From a virus (taxonomy: Duplodnaviria; Heunggongvirae; Uroviricota; Caudoviricetes): a stretch of DNA of 64,000 bases. Positions within the stretch are counted from its first letter, which is position 1. Each line of letters begins with the position of its first letter. The DNA lies in the IMG/VR virus record IMGVR_UViG_3300034069_000533, positions 1,947-65,946 of that record. One strand, given 5' to 3'. The notes below the pieces were generated by a model. That model ran no database searches. It was given only the letters and a program-made list of their open reading frames with translations, and had not been told where the DNA came from. Below are positions 2,722-21,164 of the stretch, one piece after another. Position numbers and translations under genes: made by a program.

Positions 2722-3639
2722 ATGCCTTTAACCACATACCAGCAATTCTATGCGCAATATGATGTAGCTATTCGTTCGGGCGCTGATGAAGCGACGGCTG
2801 CGGGATTGCGTTGGGTTGCTGGCGTTTTTCCGGCGATAATAATTCCGGTTATTATTGTCGCTGGTCTGCTTCTGGCTTGGGGGCTACTAGATAAGGGGCG
2901 CATATTCCAATACGGCGGCAGAGCCGCGATTGTAATTTACTTGGTAATCAGTCAAGCGTTTGTGCCGATTGTTCGGGACAATATTATTGACGGCGTTCCG
3001 AACGAGATTGCTAGCGCGATTAACGGCAACGGTAGCCGGATAACCGCAGTTGAGCAATTTGACCGACTGGACCAAGCCAGCGGGTATTTTACCGCCAGAG
3101 TTTTAGGGCAGGCAACCGGAATTTCCCAAATCGGCAACAAGATTGCCGCTTGGGCGGCGCGTGGCTTTCAGAAATTCTTTTTGGAGGCAACGTTTGTAAT
3201 CTGGATGGGTGTTCGGATGCTGACGCACATCGCTGTTGCCTTGCTGGCTTTCTCGCTAGTGTTTTTATTAATGCAAAGCACTTCGCAATGGGTAATGGAA
3301 CAGCTTGGCAAGATCATTGGCTTACTGTCCTGGCAAATTGCCATGTCCATTCTGCTAAAGGTCATGCTGACCGGGACTGAGGTATTTTTGCGTGAGACGC
3401 TTGTGCGCGGTCAAGGCATGTCCATTGAGCAGCAGGTTGACGTTTGCTTTGATATTGCTGGCTGGTTTTTTGCCTGCTTCGTGTTGGTGCTGATGGTGCC
3501 TAGCATTATCGGTGTTGGTGCAGGCGCCGCAACCTCCTCGCTCATTGCATCTGGCGCCATGGTCAACGCTGGCCGAATGTTTGTTAACGCTGCGAACAAG
3601 ATGGGTCGGGCGGCGCACGCGATGCGCCGCCGCCGCTAG
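2722..3639 (+). CDS. virB6: VirB6/TrbL polytopic membrane protein
   Basis: Multiple TM segments, 305 aa, canonical position. Confidence 0.8.
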   Translation: MPLTTYQQFYAQYDVAIRSGADEATAAGLRWVAGVFPAIIIPVIIVAGLLLAWGLLDKGRIFQYGGRAAIVIYLVISQAFVPIVRDNIIDGVPNEIASAINGNGSRITAVEQFDRLDQASGYFTARVLGQATGISQIGNKIAAWAARGFQKFFLEATFVIWMGVRMLTHIAVALLAFSLVFLLMQSTSQWVMEQLGKIIGLLSWQIAMSILLKVMLTGTEVFLRETLVRGQGMSIEQQVDVCFDIAGWFFACFVLVLMVPSIIGVGAGAATSSLIASGAMVNAGRMFVNAANKMGRAAHAMRRRR

Positions 3640-3708: not shown

Positions 3709-4338
3709 ATGAACAAGTTTGTGGCGCCCGTGACGCGCGAGAATCTGCATAGCTTTAAGCTGTTTAAAGTTATTGAGAAGAACAGTGTTTCCGTCGTCGG
3801 TAGCATTTATCGTCTAGCCGAGGACGACGGCAGCAAATGTCCATGGTTTACGCATGTAAGCGGCCCAAGTAATAGTCTTTATCCCCGGCCTGCAATTTCT
3901 CTTTATATGCTTGCCGGGATTGTTGAAGACCAATCCGACGCCAATCTTGCGCTTCAACAGGCGCGTGAGGCGCTAGACGCGGCAGAACGCGCCGTTGCGC
4001 TGGGCTCGGCAGGCGATTGCCAATGCTGGGAGTGCGCTCGCATGAGCGCGCATACTCCTGGCCCGTGGTTGTTTTTTGCAACTGACGGAATTAATGTAGG
4101 CGTAACCACGGAATCCGCAGACATTGCGCATTGTCATGGTTTTTATAAGCCTCGCCGCAGTTGGAATGAAGAAGTCGCCAACGCAAAACTTATGGCTGCT
4201 TCGCCTGATTTGTTAGAGGCTTTGCGTGAAGCTGTGGAATTTGCTGACCAAGATTATCAATGCCTGACTCCGACCGGGCGCAAGATGGTTGATGGTTGGA
4301 AGGCGGCGATTGCAAAAGCAGAAGGCAACACTGAATGA
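3709..4338 (+). CDS. phage hypothetical protein, apparent two-gene fusion
   Basis: C-terminal half HTPGPW...ANAKLMAASPDLLEAL...AIAKAEG is a common phage small-protein pattern; GGGAG precedes in-frame ATG at 4042. Confidence 0.65.
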   Translation: MNKFVAPVTRENLHSFKLFKVIEKNSVSVVGSIYRLAEDDGSKCPWFTHVSGPSNSLYPRPAISLYMLAGIVEDQSDANLALQQAREALDAAERAVALGSAGDCQCWECARMSAHTPGPWLFFATDGINVGVTTESADIAHCHGFYKPRRSWNEEVANAKLMAASPDLLEALREAVEFADQDYQCLTPTGRKMVDGWKAAIAKAEGNTE

Positions 4339-5051
4339 GCGATGACGGATTAACCCCGGAGGAAATTCAGCGCAGCAATGAAGTTGCTGCGCAGTACGTT
4401 GCCATGGATCGCGCCCGCACCCGACGCGAGACGATGAAGACGCTGGCGCTGATCGCGTGCGTCCCATCGGCGGCAAGCGGTTGGGTAATGTGGGCAACGA
4501 AGCCGCGCATTCAGCGCGAGGTTGAGTTTATCCCCATTACGGAAAATGGCGTACCGGCGCTAGCCTATCGGCTGGAAGACTTGCCACCCGAAGCGCGCAA
4601 CGATGCGGCGTTTACAACCGTATGGAATTACGTCTGCTTGCGTGAGGAATACTCATGGGGCATGGCGGAAAAGGCTTATCGCATTGTCTCGCTCATGTCC
4701 GATGATCGCGTAATGAACGAATATCAGGATTTAGTTAATATTAAAAATAAAGAAAGTCCAACGGCTGTCTATGGCCGCGACGCAGTGATTAGCATTGACT
4801 ATGACAGTCACGATGATCTTTCGCCGCCAACCGGATATTCCGGCCCGCCGCCGGGTTACTCCATCCGGTTCCGCCGCACGGTAACATGGCTGAATAAGCC
4901 ACCGGAGCGCGAGCTTTGGATGTGTTCGGTTATGTTTCATCGCAATGTGCCGAAGGTTGATATTCGCCAGAGATACGAGTTTAGTCCGCAATCTATCGTG
5001 GTTTGGCAGTATCCCGGCGCCCGTCCGATTACACCACTGAGAAGGAGATAG
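4335..5051 (+). CDS. virB8: VirB8 inner-membrane T4SS protein
   Basis: Single TM then YVCLREEYSW...Y..V.LMS...V..EY...N..SP pattern. Confidence 0.8.
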   Translation: MSDDGLTPEEIQRSNEVAAQYVAMDRARTRRETMKTLALIACVPSAASGWVMWATKPRIQREVEFIPITENGVPALAYRLEDLPPEARNDAAFTTVWNYVCLREEYSWGMAEKAYRIVSLMSDDRVMNEYQDLVNIKNKESPTAVYGRDAVISIDYDSHDDLSPPTGYSGPPPGYSIRFRRTVTWLNKPPERELWMCSVMFHRNVPKVDIRQRYEFSPQSIVVWQYPGARPITPLRRR

Positions 5052-5054
5052 AAA

Positions 5055-5270
5055 ATGGAGCTTTCAGGTTTTGTTGTTTGTCTTTCTGTTTTTCTTGCGA
5101 CATTTGCTTGTTTGCTGCTAGCAGCAATGTATGGCTTGCCAGATTACCCTTTTGGCGAGAATGATAAATATAGATCAAAGAACGAAATTTTTGGTATCTG
5201 CTTGCTTATGTTAATTTTTGCCCTTAGCTTAATTTCGGCTAACATTGCGTGGCATGTCTTTGCTCATTGA
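5055..5270 (+). CDS. small membrane protein
   Basis: Two hydrophobic segments, AGGAG RBS. Confidence 0.55.
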   Translation: MELSGFVVCLSVFLATFACLLLAAMYGLPDYPFGENDKYRSKNEIFGICLLMLIFALSLISANIAWHVFAH

Positions 5271-5282
5271 AGGGAAACGCAA

Positions 5283-5480
5283 ATGTCTAGTTTTGTTTTT
5301 GGTGTTGGTGTCGGCAATCTCGCCATGGCGCTATTCATTCATGCCGCGACTTCGGTTTCGCGCATCAAGCCTACATGCACGGCGGAAGATCATGAGATTT
5401 CGCGCATGATTGGCGCGAAACTCGGTTGGTTCGGTTTGATGCTTATGGCTGCTGTCTGGAAGGAAGGAATTTTTACATGA
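5283..5480 (+). CDS. small membrane protein
   Basis: Hydrophobic ORF, AAGGGA RBS; stop overlaps next start. Confidence 0.55.
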   Translation: MSSFVFGVGVGNLAMALFIHAATSVSRIKPTCTAEDHEISRMIGAKLGWFGLMLMAAVWKEGIFT

Positions 5481-6127
5481 ACCCGGCCCGCGCTGCGCTT
5501 CTGGCCAGCGCCGCATTTATGTGTATGGCGCTGACTGAGCCTCAGCCCATCCCCGGCGGTGACGTGCGTTACCGCACGGTAGAGTGGCGAGACGGTATTG
5601 TTATTCAGGCTTTCGGCTCGCGCGGCAAAACCATTCTGTTTGAATTGCCGCGCGGCGTTGATGCCGTTGATATTCTGCCGTCCGACCAAGACGTAATAAC
5701 GGGAAAAGTGGCAGAGGCAAGCGGCGTTACCGGCCGGGGTGCCGCCAATCAACCGGACGCGCCCGAAGGCTGCATTGAAACCGCCAACATGCAGATTTGC
5801 ATTAAGAATGATCGGTTTATTGGTATCAAACCAAAGACCGAGCTTCAGGCGCAGCCCATTCCAGTAATGATGGTAAGCGGTGTTAATGGGGCGAATCCGG
5901 TTGAGCGGCAATTCGTTATTGAAATCAGCACAACGGACACGCCTTATTATGTGGTTCGGGTGACGGTGCCGCAGCCCGTGCCCGTACAGCCTCGCCAGCC
6001 GGTTGTCCGGCGGTGGCCAACACAGCCCCGCCCGCCGGTCGCCGCGCCTCCTGTGGAGCTTCCGCCGGTCAACAATGCCTACTCCATCACGGGTGATAGG
6101 GCGCTTTTGGGAGTGCAGGGACGATGA
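5477..6127 (+). CDS. virB9: VirB9 N-terminal part (split gene)
   Basis: Signal peptide, D.RYRTVEW..G.V....G..G.T..F pattern, Pro-rich linker, ends at NNAYSITGD (start of the VirB9 C-terminal domain). Confidence 0.65.
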   Translation: MNPARAALLASAAFMCMALTEPQPIPGGDVRYRTVEWRDGIVIQAFGSRGKTILFELPRGVDAVDILPSDQDVITGKVAEASGVTGRGAANQPDAPEGCIETANMQICIKNDRFIGIKPKTELQAQPIPVMMVSGVNGANPVERQFVIEISTTDTPYYVVRVTVPQPVPVQPRQPVVRRWPTQPRPPVAAPPVELPPVNNAYSITGDRALLGVQGR

Positions 6128-6480
6128 AGCTAGCCATTCTGGCCGGGGCGCTGGTTTTGGCCGCATGTTCCAGCACCAAGCCGTTGGTTGCGCCGCCATG
6201 CCCGGAAGGCGAGGGCGCGGCGCTGAATGCCGAGGGTCCGGCCCCGGTTGTTTGGGACAACGCGCATTGGACGTTTCTGCGCTTTTCCGGGCATCAATCC
6301 TTCCCGAAGGTCACAGCATTGCGGCCAGACGGCAATGAGCGCGACGTATCTTCTTCGCCCAATCCTGACACCGGCATTATTACCGTGCATGGCGTTTTTC
6401 CAACGTTGGTTTTGCGCGAAGGCGAGCGTGTTGCCTGTGTTAAAAACAATGCGTTTGATCCTTATGGTAAGCGGCCATAA
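6124..6480 (+). CDS. VirB7-like lipoprotein fused to VirB9 C-terminal domain
   Basis: Lipobox LAAC15, PPC26..LN as in VirB7, then P.VWDN..WTFLRF...P.V...DG.E..V...VHGV...VLR.G..VAC105VKN typical of the VirB9 CTD. Confidence 0.7.
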   Translation: MKLAILAGALVLAACSSTKPLVAPPCPEGEGAALNAEGPAPVVWDNAHWTFLRFSGHQSFPKVTALRPDGNERDVSSSPNPDTGIITVHGVFPTLVLREGERVACVKNNAFDPYGKRP

Positions 6481-6698
6481 TGGATAAAGAAAAGCGCGTT
6501 ATGGCAATTGCTAAGGAAGTTGCCGAGGCTGCGTTATCTGGCGCGGTTGATCGCGTGCATAATCTTTCGCTGCAAGACAAGCTGATTTTGCTTGGTCTTG
6601 ATCCCGAAGATTATGCAATTGTGCTGCGACAGCAGGAAGGCGCCGATGAGCCGCTAAGTTGGAAAGACTGGCTAGATTTCGCAGAGAGGGAAAAATGA
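6480..6698 (+). CDS. hypothetical protein
   Basis: TAATG/ATGA overlaps with both neighbours. Confidence 0.55.
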   Translation: MDKEKRVMAIAKEVAEAALSGAVDRVHNLSLQDKLILLGLDPEDYAIVLRQQEGADEPLSWKDWLDFAEREK

Positions 6699-7741
6699 GC
6701 GAGAATAATGACGACAAGTCAGTAAATGACGGCAAGCCAACCGGGTTCATGGGCAGCGGTAGCGGCGCCGGTTATATTTTGGCTGCCATTGGCGCCGCCG
6801 CTGGCTTGGCGTGGTTCATGTGGGGTGGCCCTAGCCGGGCGCCGGCCCCGCAGGAGGCAGGACAGGTGCGGCCGGGCACTCCGGGGCGCCCGTTCGTGCC
6901 GCCTCCCCCGCCAGCGCAGGCAGAGGCGCCGCGCGATCCGCCGGCCGATCCACGCCCTAGAGACGCGGGCGAGGGCGCAGGACGGCCCCGCGCCTCGCCT
7001 ATGGTGCTGAGCGTCCGGCGCGAGCGCCCGGCCCCTACGGGCACGGCTGCGCAGCAGGAACCGAAGCCAGAGACGGTGGCGGGCATGCCGGTGCTGACTG
7101 CCGACATGGTAGCCGACGCGGAAAACTTTCTGATGCCGGGTGACAAGCTTTCCTGCCTCAGCGCTGAGCCGTTGGAAGGCAAGGCGGATGGCGTGGCGTT
7201 TACCACAGAAATTAATGAAGATTTTATTGGGCGCGGCAATGCATGGCCTCCGCTTATTCCTAAAGGCTCTCTTGCATTTGGCCGGGTGTCACGCGTGGCA
7301 GAGGATGGCGACGAACGTATTGCCGCCGCGCTGACGCTTATTCGCGGCCCGTCCGTCATTGGGCGCCCGACCCTCATGGTGCCGCTTGGCGATGCGCAGC
7401 CGGGCGAGCCATTAGGCGACGCTGGATTGCGCGCCAATGTCGAGACGCGGTTTTGGGCGCGGCTTGGCACGGTTGCCGCTTACGCTGGTCTAGATGCGGT
7501 TGGCCGGATCGGGTCCAGCTTAGCCGGTAACGCCATCAATGAAGGCTTAAGCGGCGGTGGCCGGACTAATATCAATGTCGGCAATTTCGGCGGCATGGCA
7601 TCCGGCCGGTCGCTAGCCGGATCAGCATTCGATCATGAGCTAAGGCGCGGCCCGCGCTTGTCGCGCCCGCAGGCGCAGCCCTGCACTATCTTTATCACCA
7701 AGCCAATTCGCGTGCGCGGCACGCCACAGCGCGGGAGATAG
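6695..7741 (+). CDS. virB10: VirB10/TrbI T4SS core protein
   Basis: N-terminal TM, Pro-rich stalk, L.PG..L.C...LIPKGS..G...G.AG....V..RFWAR domain, P.L..PQ.....I...KP.. end. Confidence 0.85.
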   Translation: MSENNDDKSVNDGKPTGFMGSGSGAGYILAAIGAAAGLAWFMWGGPSRAPAPQEAGQVRPGTPGRPFVPPPPPAQAEAPRDPPADPRPRDAGEGAGRPRASPMVLSVRRERPAPTGTAAQQEPKPETVAGMPVLTADMVADAENFLMPGDKLSCLSAEPLEGKADGVAFTTEINEDFIGRGNAWPPLIPKGSLAFGRVSRVAEDGDERIAAALTLIRGPSVIGRPTLMVPLGDAQPGEPLGDAGLRANVETRFWARLGTVAAYAGLDAVGRIGSSLAGNAINEGLSGGGRTNINVGNFGGMASGRSLAGSAFDHELRRGPRLSRPQAQPCTIFITKPIRVRGTPQRGR

Positions 7742-13337: not shown

Positions 13338-13831
13338 AACAGATTTTGCCGGTATGGGAGCCGAAAAAAAACAAAGTGCTGTCATGTTTTTATATGGGTT
13401 GGGGATTTATATTAGTTAGCATTCCGTTTGTTCCTTTTATTGTGCGTGATAAAAATTATAATCCAACGCCATTTATGGCCGTTGTAATTGCGCCGCTTAT
13501 TGAAAGCATGATGATTGCAATGATTTGCTTTTTAATTTTTGGTATTTTAAGCTTTATAATTGAAAAAAACAAACTTAATGATTGGGTTTATATTTTATTT
13601 GCGGCTTCCATTTGCGGTGGCATTTTTGGGCCGCTTCACAACGGACTTGGCCTAGAAAATATTGCTCGCTCTATGCAATCCGGTATTGTATTTGTTTTAA
13701 TGTGTGTGCAATTTTTGTCGTGGAATATAACTGTTGGAATGACTTGGGCTTTTTGGGGAACGGTTTTAACTCATGCGGTAACTAACGGCACGCTACAAAG
13801 CATTGCTTTAACTTTGCGATATTTCCGATAA
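13334..13831 (+). CDS. CPBP/CAAX-type intramembrane metalloprotease-like protein (AT-rich)
   Basis: Multiple TMs with APLIES, FG.LH and H...N motifs. Confidence 0.55.
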   Translation: MKQILPVWEPKKNKVLSCFYMGWGFILVSIPFVPFIVRDKNYNPTPFMAVVIAPLIESMMIAMICFLIFGILSFIIEKNKLNDWVYILFAASICGGIFGPLHNGLGLENIARSMQSGIVFVLMCVQFLSWNITVGMTWAFWGTVLTHAVTNGTLQSIALTLRYFR

Positions 13832-15570
13832 TGCCCGCCCTTCCGCTGTTTGCTGCGCTGGCCGCGATCCCGCTGGCCAGCGCTTTCGCGTCCTGGCTGT
13901 TCCTGACGATTAAAGGATGGTGGGCCAGCCCCTACTATGCCCATGGGATGCATTGGGCTTGGGCGTGGTGGGTCTATGTGGCCGATCCCGGCCCATCCCT
14001 CATGACGAAGGCTTGGCTGGCCCTGACGGGGCTTGGCGGGCTTGCCATGGGCATCGCCTTGGTCCGCTTCTCCTGGCCGGATCGCAACGCAGGCTTCTAT
14101 GGCCGGGCCAAGTGGCAAACCATGTGGGGCGCCATCCGGGCCGGACTGACCTTCAGCTTGCGTCCGAAGCCGGATGGCATTCTGCTTGGCAAGCATTTAT
14201 TTGCCGGATTTATCTGGCTGTATGTCAGTTTGCGCGGCGATTTGCATGTGTCGCTGACCGCAACCACCGGCAGCGGCAAAGGTGTGTCTTTCGTTAATCC
14301 CAACGTATTAAATTGGGCCGGGCCGGTGTTCTGCTTCTCGGTCAAGCGCGACGTACTGAACGCTTGCGCGGCTGAGCGCGAGCGCAAGGGCGACAAAGTA
14401 TTTATCTTTGATGTGACCGAGCCGGATGGCGTTACGCATCAATGGAGCGGCTTCGGTGAAGTGCGACGCTATACGCCTGATATTTATAGCGACATTCAAA
14501 AGATTATGCATACCATTATTCCCGAAACCAAAGCCAATAATCCATATTGGGATAATGCCGCACGCAAAATAGCAACCGCTGTTATGGTTATGTTGGCGGA
14601 AATCAGGGATCATCCGCTTAACATTGAAGAATTATTAGGATTGATTGGCGCCCATAACTATGACGTATTGTTGCGCGATATGATTTATACTTCTCGGCTG
14701 AAAAAGCGCCCGTTCCCGCGTCGTGCAGTTGATGCCGTGCTAGAATGGCTAGATAATAAAGCAGTAGAGGGCGCCGCTGCGGTTCGGGAGAATATTACAA
14801 CGGCGCTGGCGCTGTGGAATGATCCGCGCGTTTGTGCCGCGACCAACAGCCAGGAATTTGAGCTTAAGACTCTGCGCTCGCAACGCGTCAGCGTGTTTGT
14901 CTGCGCTCAGCCGGGAGATATTAGGTTGCTGCGGCCGGTCTACGGGCTTTTGTTTAATCAGTTAATCCAGATGAATAGCCGGGTTGAATTTAGCAAAGAC
15001 CCGACGCACCGAAAACACCGGACATTAATTATGCTGGATGAGCGTTGGGCGCTTGGCGGCATGCGCGAGCTAGACGACGCGTTTGCGTATCTGCGGTCCT
15101 ATGGCTTTCGGTTCTGCGTTGTGTTGCAGAGCAAGGGGCAGTTGAAGACTTCGCTTGGTGAAGAAGGCGCTGACAACCTATTCAACAACATTAAATGCGA
15201 AATGATCTTTGGCGGCACCGACCAAAAGACTGCTGATGAAGTTAGCAAGCGTGCTGGCATCAATACGGAGGTTGAGTCTAGCCGCAGCCGTCCGCGCTTC
15301 TCTCTATTCAACTTCAGCCGTCACACAGAGAGCGAGAGCAAAAAGGGCCGTCCGCTATTGCTGCCGCAAGAGGTTGCGCAGTTGGATGAAAAGTTTGTTG
15401 TGGTCCAGATGAAAGGCAAGCCACCTTTAAAGCTGCATAGAATTTTTTGGTATGAAGATCGGCATTTTAGGGATATGGTTGGTGAACCTTCCGGCTTACC
15501 CAAGCTTGAAGTCACGATGAAACGCGATGAGGAATCAGCCTTGAACGCGGAGGATATGCAGGAGGTTTGA
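13831..15570 (+). CDS. virD4: VirD4/TraG type IV coupling protein
   Basis: N-terminal TMs, YGRAKW, Walker A TTGSGKG, YWDNAA, MLDE..LG, RSYG..F..VLQ..QL...G.EGA. Confidence 0.92.
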   Translation: MPALPLFAALAAIPLASAFASWLFLTIKGWWASPYYAHGMHWAWAWWVYVADPGPSLMTKAWLALTGLGGLAMGIALVRFSWPDRNAGFYGRAKWQTMWGAIRAGLTFSLRPKPDGILLGKHLFAGFIWLYVSLRGDLHVSLTATTGSGKGVSFVNPNVLNWAGPVFCFSVKRDVLNACAAERERKGDKVFIFDVTEPDGVTHQWSGFGEVRRYTPDIYSDIQKIMHTIIPETKANNPYWDNAARKIATAVMVMLAEIRDHPLNIEELLGLIGAHNYDVLLRDMIYTSRLKKRPFPRRAVDAVLEWLDNKAVEGAAAVRENITTALALWNDPRVCAATNSQEFELKTLRSQRVSVFVCAQPGDIRLLRPVYGLLFNQLIQMNSRVEFSKDPTHRKHRTLIMLDERWALGGMRELDDAFAYLRSYGFRFCVVLQSKGQLKTSLGEEGADNLFNNIKCEMIFGGTDQKTADEVSKRAGINTEVESSRSRPRFSLFNFSRHTESESKKGRPLLLPQEVAQLDEKFVVVQMKGKPPLKLHRIFWYEDRHFRDMVGEPSGLPKLEVTMKRDEESALNAEDMQEV

Positions 15571-20320: not shown

Positions 20321-20896
20321 ATGAAGATTTTGGGTTGGCTGTTTAATCATTCGCGCAAGGCGCGGGACAAGATGAGTCATGCCAAGATGGTTGAGTCTTG
20401 GAATAATCGCGTGGCGCAAGCGGACAAAGAAAAGGCCAAGCGCGAAGCGGCGCCTCGTCTACATGGCCCGTACCGTCCGGCCATGGATGGCCGCACCCGG
20501 CCATCGCACTACAGCGCCAGCCAGCCCCGCAGGCGTGATGACAGCCTGCCGGACAGCGGGCCGGACTACCTCAACCCGGCCAACCCGCTAAGCCCCCTGA
20601 GCCCCTTCTCTGTGTATGGCTTGGGTAACAGCGACACGCCAAGCACCGACACCGACCGCGAGCGCGACCGGCCAGCCCCTACGCCCGCGCCCGCCCCGGA
20701 GCCTTAGCGTGCGGCGCCATCGCATAGCCACTCGCACGGCTATTCGTTCAAGAGCGACAGTACCGACAGCCTAAGCAACGGAAGCGGCAGCAGCAATAGC
20801 AGCAGCTTTGATTTTGGTTCGTCTAGCAGCAGCAGCGACAGTTCATTTAGCAGCAGCAGCGATAGCGGTTCGTCCAGTTTCAGCAGTGGGGAGTAA
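20321..20896 (+). pseudogene. Ser/Gly-rich-tail protein interrupted by one in-frame TAG (20705-20707)
   Basis: Frame stays open after TAG for 62 codons (RAAPSHSHSHG...SSSSDSGSSSFSSGE) to TAA at 20894-20896, 4 nt before the next ATG. Confidence 0.6.
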
Positions 20897-20900
20897 GGCA

Positions 20901-21164
20901 ATGAATAAGATTGTAATTATCGGGCTGGCCGCGCTGACGCTGGCCGGGTGTGACGCGCGAACCGTTCACATCAACATTGATCCAAGCAAGGCGACGTATA
21001 GCCGCGACAACCGCACCGGGCTTTGTTTTGCTGCGTTCGGTCGGGCCAAGGGCGGCAGTTGGAGCGATGTTGCCGACAGCCTGACAGTTACCAACGTGCC
21101 GTGTTCGGCCGAGGTTATGGCGCTTGTGCCGAACGGCCAGCGCGGGCCGGGTAGCTTGCGATAA
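20901..21164 (+). CDS. small lipoprotein
   Basis: MNKIVIIGLAALTLAGC lipobox. Confidence 0.7.
   Translation: MNKIVIIGLAALTLAGCDARTVHINIDPSKATYSRDNRTGLCFAAFGRAKGGSWSDVADSLTVTNVPCSAEVMALVPNGQRGPGSLR

Follow-up and report, generated by a model that had tools for sequence, protein, structure and literature searches.

In a 64,000-nucleotide stretch of viral DNA, VirB9 of a type IV secretion system (T4SS) is divided between two overlapping genes, and its outer half is carried by a lipoprotein with a VirB7-like N-terminus. The whole stretch, called the window here, corresponds to C1:1947-65946 of the 129,946-bp IMG/VR record IMGVR_UViG_3300034069_000533, and window coordinates are used throughout. 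Of the machine that serves conjugation and effector injection, the part made of VirB7, VirB9 and VirB10 has been studied best. The outer layer (O-layer) of its core comprises VirB7 together with the VirB9 and VirB10 C-terminal domains, and the inner layer (I-layer) comprises the N-terminal domains of VirB9 and VirB10. The split VirB9 with a VirB7-fused outer half is a real variant of this well-known machine that recurs and is apparently undescribed, and the locus as a whole is likely explained by a T4SS outer-membrane core that occurs naturally in a two-gene form. The two open reading frames, ORF1 and ORF2, and their parts are listed below with lengths in amino acids (aa); the signal peptides, the lipobox and the overlap were read from the sequence.

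5477..6127, + strand: ORF1 (P0001, 216 aa), predicted secreted VirB9 N-terminal half, by translation; signal peptide, I-layer beta-sandwich, Pro-rich linker and B1 strand motif
5477..5530, + strand: ORF1 signal peptide, residues 1-18, presumably cleaved after C-M-A
5561..5971, + strand: VirB9 N-terminal beta-sandwich, ORF1 residues 29-165 (strands 32-163 in the model)
6068..6109, + strand: B1 motif V-N-N-A-Y-S-I-T-G-D-R-A-L-L, ORF1 residues 198-211, aligning to the canonical N..Y..QGD..LAP block
6124..6127, + strand: ATGA overlap of the ORF1 stop and ORF2 start (putative translational coupling)
6124..6480, + strand: ORF2 (P0002, 118 aa), predicted lipoprotein with a VirB7-like segment and strands B2-B9 of the VirB9 C-terminal domain
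6124..6168, + strand: ORF2 lipoprotein signal peptide, lipobox L-A-A-C15, Ser at +2
6166..6243, + strand: VirB7-like segment, ORF2 residues 15-40; C26 codon at 6199-6201, N35 codon at 6226-6228 (L34-N35)
6244..6468, + strand: VirB9 C-terminal beta-sandwich, ORF2 residues 41-115, 8 strands; C105 codon at 6436-6438 (V-A-C105-V-K-N)

ORF2 begins with M-K-L-A-I-L-A-G-A-L-V-L-A-A-C15. Its residues 43-108 match positions 133-197 of the 198 in the Pfam model CagX (expect value, E, 1.6e-8, with 35.1 bits where the cut-off is 34.2) and positions 182-248 of the 248 in the VirB9 model TIGR02781, that is, its C-terminal 67 positions. The cut-offs for a full-length VirB9 equivalog are missed (44 bits against 217.7 for TIGR02781, 37 against 255 for NF010435). 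A profile of three ORF2 sequences matches residues 169-246 of R388 TrwF (E 1.2e-10), as well as the pKM101 TraO C-terminal domain. The canonical reference for profile-profile comparison was a 25-member alignment of single-chain VirB9 proteins found via the ORF2 profile, with 294 columns. ORF2 residues 39-118 align by hhalign with columns 187-272 (99.9%, E 1e-30), starting on L-A-P..W-D-D-G. The AlphaFold2 model of ORF2, built on a 42-row alignment, has a predicted local distance difference test score (pLDDT) of 79.5 overall and about 88-95 over residues 41-110, and contains eight strands. Its best matches are the C-terminal domains of TrwF and TraO, Xanthomonas VirB9, and CagX (Foldseek E 6e-6 to 1e-3), and VIA returned Z 11.2 with a root-mean-square deviation of 2.2 Å over 81 residues. 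About 38 residues at the start of ORF2 are without a counterpart in VirB9. At the other end, ORF2 and its closest relatives stop right after D-P-Y-G-K-R-P (window 6469-6480) and are devoid of the T-G-T-x-S-P-x-V-x-R tail of most canonical VirB9 proteins and many other fused members. The similar gene order of Trb systems, in which trbG is followed by the gene for the lipoprotein TrbH, made TrbH a candidate identity for ORF2; it was rejected, as no Pfam TrbH match was obtained with E values up to 1.

ORF1 has no direct sequence match in Pfam, NCBIfam or PDB, and only profiles and folds revealed its homology. Against the canonical VirB9 profile, ORF1 aligns by hhalign with columns 17-189 of 294 (probability 98.3%, E 1.3e-14), ending on the N..Y..Q-G-D..L-A-P block, and the CagX-positive upstream protein of another split locus, L005, matches ORF1 at E 2e-9 (BLASTP). 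The AlphaFold2 model of ORF1 (31-row alignment, pLDDT 81.5) is most similar in Foldseek to the TrwF/VirB9 N-terminal domain within the I-layer, 7o3t_B and 8rt6_v, at E 4e-7 and with template modelling (TM) scores by target of 0.72-0.81 (0.81 for 8rt6_v). Xanthomonas VirB9, F-plasmid TraK (ranks 5-6), DotH and CagX follow. A hydrophobic helix spans residues 3-18 of the model, and the same feature occurs in the homologue P0005. By profile-profile comparison and modelled fold, ORF1 is a VirB9 N-terminal domain. It holds an insertion of about 30 residues modelled at low confidence (about 70-98, with pLDDT below 50 at 81-89), followed by the cysteines C99 and C108, which are invariant between ORF1 and P0005; this region may be a subfamily-specific disulfide loop. 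A C-x-x-N-L-C loop like that of ORF1 residues ~70-108 (window 5684-5800) is also seen in the ORF1 counterpart of L005 and in the canonical VirB9 P0133.

Aligned in this way, ORF1 and ORF2 tile one canonical VirB9, and the break falls exactly after strand B1. TraO has strands B1-B9, with B1 in the region that matches the tail motif of ORF1 (Gillespie 2009, PMC2653234). Both VirB9 domains are present, but on two polypeptides, separated by a stop, a new signal peptide and a lipobox. An earlier note on this DNA had ascribed a signal peptide and the VirB9 N-domain to ORF1, and to ORF2 a lipobox of its own, C26, an L-N, V-A-C105-V-K-N and the VirB9 C-terminal domain. The signal-like helix, the hhalign match and the TrwF-like fold bear out the first assignment; the ORF2 motifs are found where it had placed them, and ORF2 residues 41-118 model as a VirB9/CagX C-terminal domain, with TrwF, TraO and CagX at the top in Foldseek and the VIA score given above. 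The note was mistaken in ending ORF1 directly after N-N-A-Y-S-I-T-G-D: nine more residues (R-A-L-L-G-V-Q-G-R) follow, and the C-terminus reads P-P-V-N-N-A-Y-S-I-T-G-D-R-A-L-L-G-V-Q-G-R.

As the two halves add up to one tiled VirB9, share 4 nt and come from a metagenomic record, they might also be put down to a frameshift, to faulty assembly or to the decay of one virB9 into a pseudogene. This reading is extremely improbable and contradicted by the data. The signal peptide, lipobox and arm add about 38 residues relative to canonical VirB9, and no single indel would merge the two frames into a normal protein. For the probable source sample, a plant metagenome, contigs from a second run cover positions 5400-6450 without a difference, and a 151-nt contig from a freshwater study spans the junction with five substitutions and no indel; both are contigs, not raw reads, and would miss rare variants. 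They agree with the earlier note, which had argued against a frameshift from the ATGA overlap and the new signal peptide.

The layout also recurs. Homologues of ORF2 in other assemblies are 84% and 60% identical, and the contig of the latter also encodes a 52% identical ORF1 homologue. A search for other fusions of this kind, which the earlier note had suggested, was made with the ORF2 profile against 1.84 billion cluster representatives and found at least 12 clusters of proteins of 115-153 aa that align from residue 1; all of them carry a lipobox, another Cys 8-12 residues behind it and a C-terminal Cys. The neighbourhoods of eight members were examined, seven with DNA (L001, L003, L005, L007, L008, L009 and L019) and one, P0007, by its gene table alone. 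All eight loci have the order VirB8, N-terminal-domain protein (163-299 aa), lipoprotein with the C-terminal domain, and VirB10, the layout of P0007 being taken from the gene table. The two genes overlap by 4 nt or 1 nt in L001, L007, L008, L009 and L019. Five of the six aligned upstream proteins, the 52% identical ORF1 homologue included, match Pfam CagX, and an N..Y motif is found near the end of all six. In L003, the closest relative, which holds the 84% identical ORF2, a gene for a single-pass membrane peptide of 37 aa (L003:105-218) lies between the ORF1 tail and the ORF2 homologue and overlaps each by 4 nt, so the two halves are separable genes. The layout is kept in independent assemblies down to about 25-35% identity, and its recurrence at 52-60% identity and lower is far beyond chance.

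A tblastn search with ORF2 and three other fused proteins against 72,556 plasmids returned only canonical full-length VirB9 or remnants truncated by Tn3. The remnants, in the Sphingobium plasmids L015 and L017, are VirB9 C-terminal domains adjoining Tn3-family transposases, and represent T4SS loci truncated by transposition, not fused forms. No match to the fused form was found in a phage collection; these negatives do not prove that such forms are absent. Conserved-peptide patterns retrieved no close relative from IMG/VR, the GTDB species genomes or JGI metagenome contigs, with one distant canonical match from GTDB only. Some family members are annotated by JGI only as 'VirB9-like', and no description of a split VirB9 or a VirB7-VirB9 fusion was found in the open-access literature of PMC and bioRxiv, subscription journals lying outside that search.

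The N-terminal arm of ORF2 resembles VirB7, as the earlier note had also proposed. The lipobox typical of VirB7 is present in L-A-A-C15 (predicted lipidation), and C15, C26 and C105 are invariant in an alignment of 18 family members. When VirB7 and VirB9 of the Ti plasmid (annotated record L020) are aligned to ORF2, VirB7 Cys15 falls on C15, Cys24 on C26 and the Asn of P-L-N on N35, and VirB9 Cys262 falls on C105. VirB9 Cys262 takes part in a disulfide with VirB7 (PMC2653234), in which residue 24 is the disulfide-forming residue (PMC3093366). By this alignment, C26 and C105 are the positional equivalents of the Cys24/Cys262 pair of Agrobacterium. Free VirB7 is a mini-lipoprotein of 45-65 aa; here, the arm is the N-terminus of a 118-aa protein and is continuous with the VirB9 C-terminal domain.

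In pKM101, TraN is wrapped round the TraO sandwich. The Val of its P-V-N-K motif is wedged between the two TraO sheets, one of which gains a short strand from the segment in front, and the TraO main chain is contacted by the Asn through three hydrogen bonds (PMC3093366). Of this P-[ILV]-N-[KR] clamp motif, ORF2 has A-L-N35, aligned with P-L-N, but the Pro and the Lys/Arg are absent. A 17-row arm profile found pKM101 TraN (3zbi_C) at the top among all PDB sequences (E 4.4e-5), with the family Asn on the Asn of P-V-N-K, the score coming partly from the signal peptide. In the canonical relative L012, an uncalled gene for a 50-aa lipoprotein (5110-5262) directly before virB8 is a clear VirB7 (PF17413 E 3.4e-11, NF010433 E 5e-10), and the arm profile aligns with it by hhalign at 93%, lipobox Cys, second Cys and L-N included. 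Three fused relatives match the VirB7 model NF010433, all under its curated cut-off (P0147, E 8.5e-7; P0016, E 3.5e-4; P0021, E 3e-4). P0147 also matches PF17413 (E 0.0019) and keeps an almost complete VirB7 sequence of Agrobacterium type.

A separate virB7 was not found in the element: a scan of the whole 130 kb with VirB7 models gave no match. A simple lipobox scan of the same sequence yielded, besides ORF2, only one other plausible lipoprotein. It lies 14 kb away at 20886-21164 on the + strand, has about 87 aa, the lipobox L-A-G-C with Asp at +2 and no VirB7 motif, and may be an entry-exclusion (Eex)-type protein. None of the split loci with scannable DNA has a virB7 between virB6 and virB8; L007 has only a lipoprotein in the Eex position, between virB5 and virB6. 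The normal virB7 of the canonical relative L012 lies between virB6 and virB8.

From these data, the following assembly can be proposed. ORF1 would be exported by Sec, and its VirB9 N-terminal domain would form the periplasmic I-layer ring with the N-terminus of VirB10, leaving a flexible Pro-rich linker that ends in the B1 strand motif. ORF2, made by translational coupling, would receive its lipid at C15 and be directed to the outer membrane. In one chain it would provide the VirB7 function, with lipid anchor and Cys/L-N clamp, and strands B2-B9, which would form the O-layer around the C-terminal domain of VirB10. A disulfide between C26 and C105, plausible from the alignment and most simply formed within one chain, would staple the VirB7-like arm to its own domain. 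The tail of ORF1 could plausibly complete the ORF2 beta-sandwich in trans as B1 and so tie the two layers together; both the intramolecular bond and the B1 in trans had been suggested in the earlier note. A B1 supplied in trans is supported by the strand count of the ORF2 model, eight against nine in TraO, by the retention of the N..Y motif among split proteins and by the weak pass in the complex test described below. Such a split would let the two rings assemble with independent stoichiometry. R388 has 14 subunits in its O-layer and 16 in its I-layer, and two N-terminal domains have C-terminal domains that are absent from the O-layer (PMC9259494); this mismatch implies that the two VirB9 domains already assemble separately there.

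The complex test, run on ORF2 16-118 with ORF1 150-216, gave a score of 0.44 (best of three controls 0.00), its runs agreeing in at least 88% of contacts with a partner pLDDT of at least 52. Solved complexes pass the mark of this test in 58 of 80 cases and mismatched pairs in 2 of 110; at 0.60 or below, only 7 of the same 80 pass it, along with both passing mismatches. The score of 0.44 is weak support.

Several observations weigh against the proposed assembly. ORF2 residues 1-42 on their own give no significant match to a VirB7 model (best LvhB7, E 0.18), so that the VirB7 homology of the arm rests on family members and on position. The arm is modelled at low confidence, with pLDDT 53-60 for residues 1-30, and just 5-6 residues separate N35 from the first strand of the C-terminal domain (B2), a short link for an arm that would have to reach the canonical VirB7 groove in cis. 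Solved VirB9 structures exist, and the pass in the complex test may reflect likeness rather than binding. VIA places model residues 26-118 on TraO 186-276, and its alignments to CagX and Xanthomonas VirB9 begin at the first strand of those proteins; this suggests that the monomer model puts the arm at the B1 site, where it would compete with a B1 in trans. In the split locus L008, the B1 motif is degenerate and is followed by a long extension.

Some of these points would fit the same architecture with another docking, in which the VirB7-derived arm of ORF2 fills its own B1 position in cis, and the conserved N..Y...G tail of ORF1 binds elsewhere, for instance to a neighbouring ORF2 or to VirB10, or only weakly. 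The start of the VIA alignments in the arm, the short distance from N35 to B2 and the weak support for the trans strand all speak for it. This docking is nevertheless unlikely, as the arm has the low pLDDT given above and no real strand by DSSP. N199 and Y202 of ORF1 are invariant in six split N-terminal-domain proteins amid a hypervariable linker, which argues that B1 still has a partner. In the solved complexes, VirB7 binds alongside B1 without replacing it (PMC3093366).

The missing VirB7 match of residues 1-42 has also been considered under another explanation, that the N-terminus of ORF2 is a generic lipoprotein anchor and not a descendant of VirB7, whose role would be lost or played by an unrecognised protein. 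Much of the TraN profile score comes from the signal peptide, and several small unannotated ORFs are interleaved in the operon, as this explanation would allow. It is quite improbable in view of the invariant second Cys, which aligns with VirB7 Cys24, the L/V-N motif, which aligns with P-L-N and P-V-N-K, the near-complete VirB7 of P0147 and the hhalign match to a true VirB7. No split locus with scannable DNA has a virB7 where canonical L012 has one, and the scans of the element showed no other VirB7-like lipoprotein. The two-gene core with a VirB7-derived arm is preferred here on these grounds.

The evolution of the split form was addressed with a tree of C-terminal domains (40-42 rows, 98 columns) and one of N-terminal domains (31 rows, 192 columns). 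In the former, ORF2 belongs to a clade of nine, all fused, with support of 97/95, and further fused proteins are scattered between canonical branches. Approximately unbiased (AU) tests on these short alignments rejected one origin for the split systems as a whole (p 0.0004 for C-terminal and 0.00014 for N-terminal domains). The N-terminal-domain protein of L007 falls inside a canonical clade (P0025/P0030/P0040/P0042; 100/98), the same clade as its partner P0031 in the C-terminal-domain tree. The arm of P0031 is of the P-V-N type, and those of the others are of the A-L-N or Agrobacterium type. The trees indicate a minimum of two to three changes of layout, each of them at this one site, and do not distinguish gain from loss. 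Repeated fusion, cassette transfer by recombination and re-fusion are candidate routes. More tentatively, and rather doubtful in its full extent, the split form could be a recurrently evolved alternative core design, used here by a phage-borne T4SS. VirB9 would be cut at the one permissive site, after B1, and VirB7 tethered covalently to the C-terminal domain, giving a self-stapled O-layer subunit and an I-layer on a detachable strand, with ring stoichiometries, and perhaps assembly and disassembly, uncoupled.

The host record is classified by IMG/VR as 'virus', has direct terminal repeats and is estimated to be complete. A VirB/D4 system borne by a phage is unusual in itself. Around the split VirB9, Pfam matched VirB5 (PF07996), VirB8 (PF04335), VirB10 (PF03743) and a VirB11-type ATPase (PF00437); the protein in the VirB6 position, 2722-3639, was without a match in the same scan. 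The neighbouring genes with assigned coordinates are given below, the identities of VirB4 and VirD4 being read from the sequence alone.

4335..5051, + strand: VirB8 (PF04335, E 2.5e-14)
6695..7741, + strand: VirB10/TrbI (PF03743, E 2.1e-11; NF038091)
3-497: putative VirB4
13831-15570: putative VirD4

The VirB10 frame as listed starts at TTG 6659 (6659-7741). ATG 6695 is the likelier start, since it forms an ATGA overlap with the stop of a 72-aa ORF (6480-6698), and the resulting 348 aa equal the length of the L001 homologue. Start/stop overlaps chain most genes of the T4SS stretch. They include small ORFs at 5055-5270 (71 aa), 5283-5480 (65 aa) and 6480-6698 (72 aa), which are interleaved among virB8, ORF1, ORF2 and virB10 and have no Pfam match. 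Counterparts of similar size occur at the same places in L001, and the 72-aa ORF is clearly conserved in L003.

A natural variant of this kind amounts to an evolutionary experiment on the core complex. It bears on which contacts are essential, what purpose the VirB7-VirB9 disulfide has, and whether the I-layer and the O-layer need a covalent link, a question already raised by the 14/16 symmetry mismatch in R388. ORF2 offers a ready-made minimal O-layer subunit for structural work. In annotation, pipelines label both genes either 'VirB9-like' or hypothetical, and to them virB7 would seem absent and virB9 cut short; split systems could therefore be scored as defective.

A close counterpart is the disulfide-linked VirB7-VirB9 heterodimer of Agrobacterium tumefaciens (Ti VirB/D4), a system of mating-pair-formation type T (MPF-T). 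The VirB9 domains, the aligned Cys pair, the lipobox Cys and the P-L-N Asn are alike, as is the surrounding set of VirB5, 8, 10 and 11 with a protein in the VirB6 position and a putative VirD4. Agrobacterium has a free gene for a 55-aa VirB7 between virB6 and virB8, a single-chain VirB9 of 293 aa and an intermolecular bond, whereas here there is no separate virB7, VirB9 is cut after B1 and both cysteines lie on one chain. The best structural matches of the ORF2 model are TraN-TraO of pKM101 and TrwH-TrwF of R388 (3JQO, 2OFQ, 7O3J, 8RT6; Foldseek E 6e-6 to 2e-4, VIA Z 10-11). ORF1 matches the N-terminal domain of R388 TrwF, and TraN is the top PDB match of the family arm profile. In contrast to the split system, these pairs are separate chains without the Cys pair, and TraO and TrwF carry B1 and the N-terminal domain on the chain of the C-terminal domain.

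The truncation point of ORF1 has a parallel in Rickettsia, where RvhB9b (VirB9b; PMC2653234), a VirB9 paralogue, consists of the N-terminal domain and B1 only. Rickettsia also has a full-length VirB9a and a separate RvhB7, with no VirB7-C-terminal-domain fusion described, while ORF1 is the only carrier of the N-terminal domain and is paired with a fusion. In Xanthomonas citri, VirB7 (XAC2622; Souza et al. 2011, PMC3093366) likewise combines the VirB7 N-terminal motif with a folded globular domain on one lipoprotein that decorates the O-layer. The added domain there is N0 and VirB9 is whole; here, it is the C-terminal domain of VirB9 itself. F-type systems (7SPB, 7OKO) work in a similar way in outline (PMC8770708): TraK is a periplasmic ring protein like the VirB9 N-terminal domain, the separate lipoprotein TraV has a folded part, and the rings are of unequal symmetry. 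No sequence or fold match was seen between ORF2 and TraV, and the present locus is probably MPF-T by its other genes. The split VirB9 is a variant of a known machine and not a new kind of system, and as such it is relevant to the structural and evolutionary biology of T4SSs.

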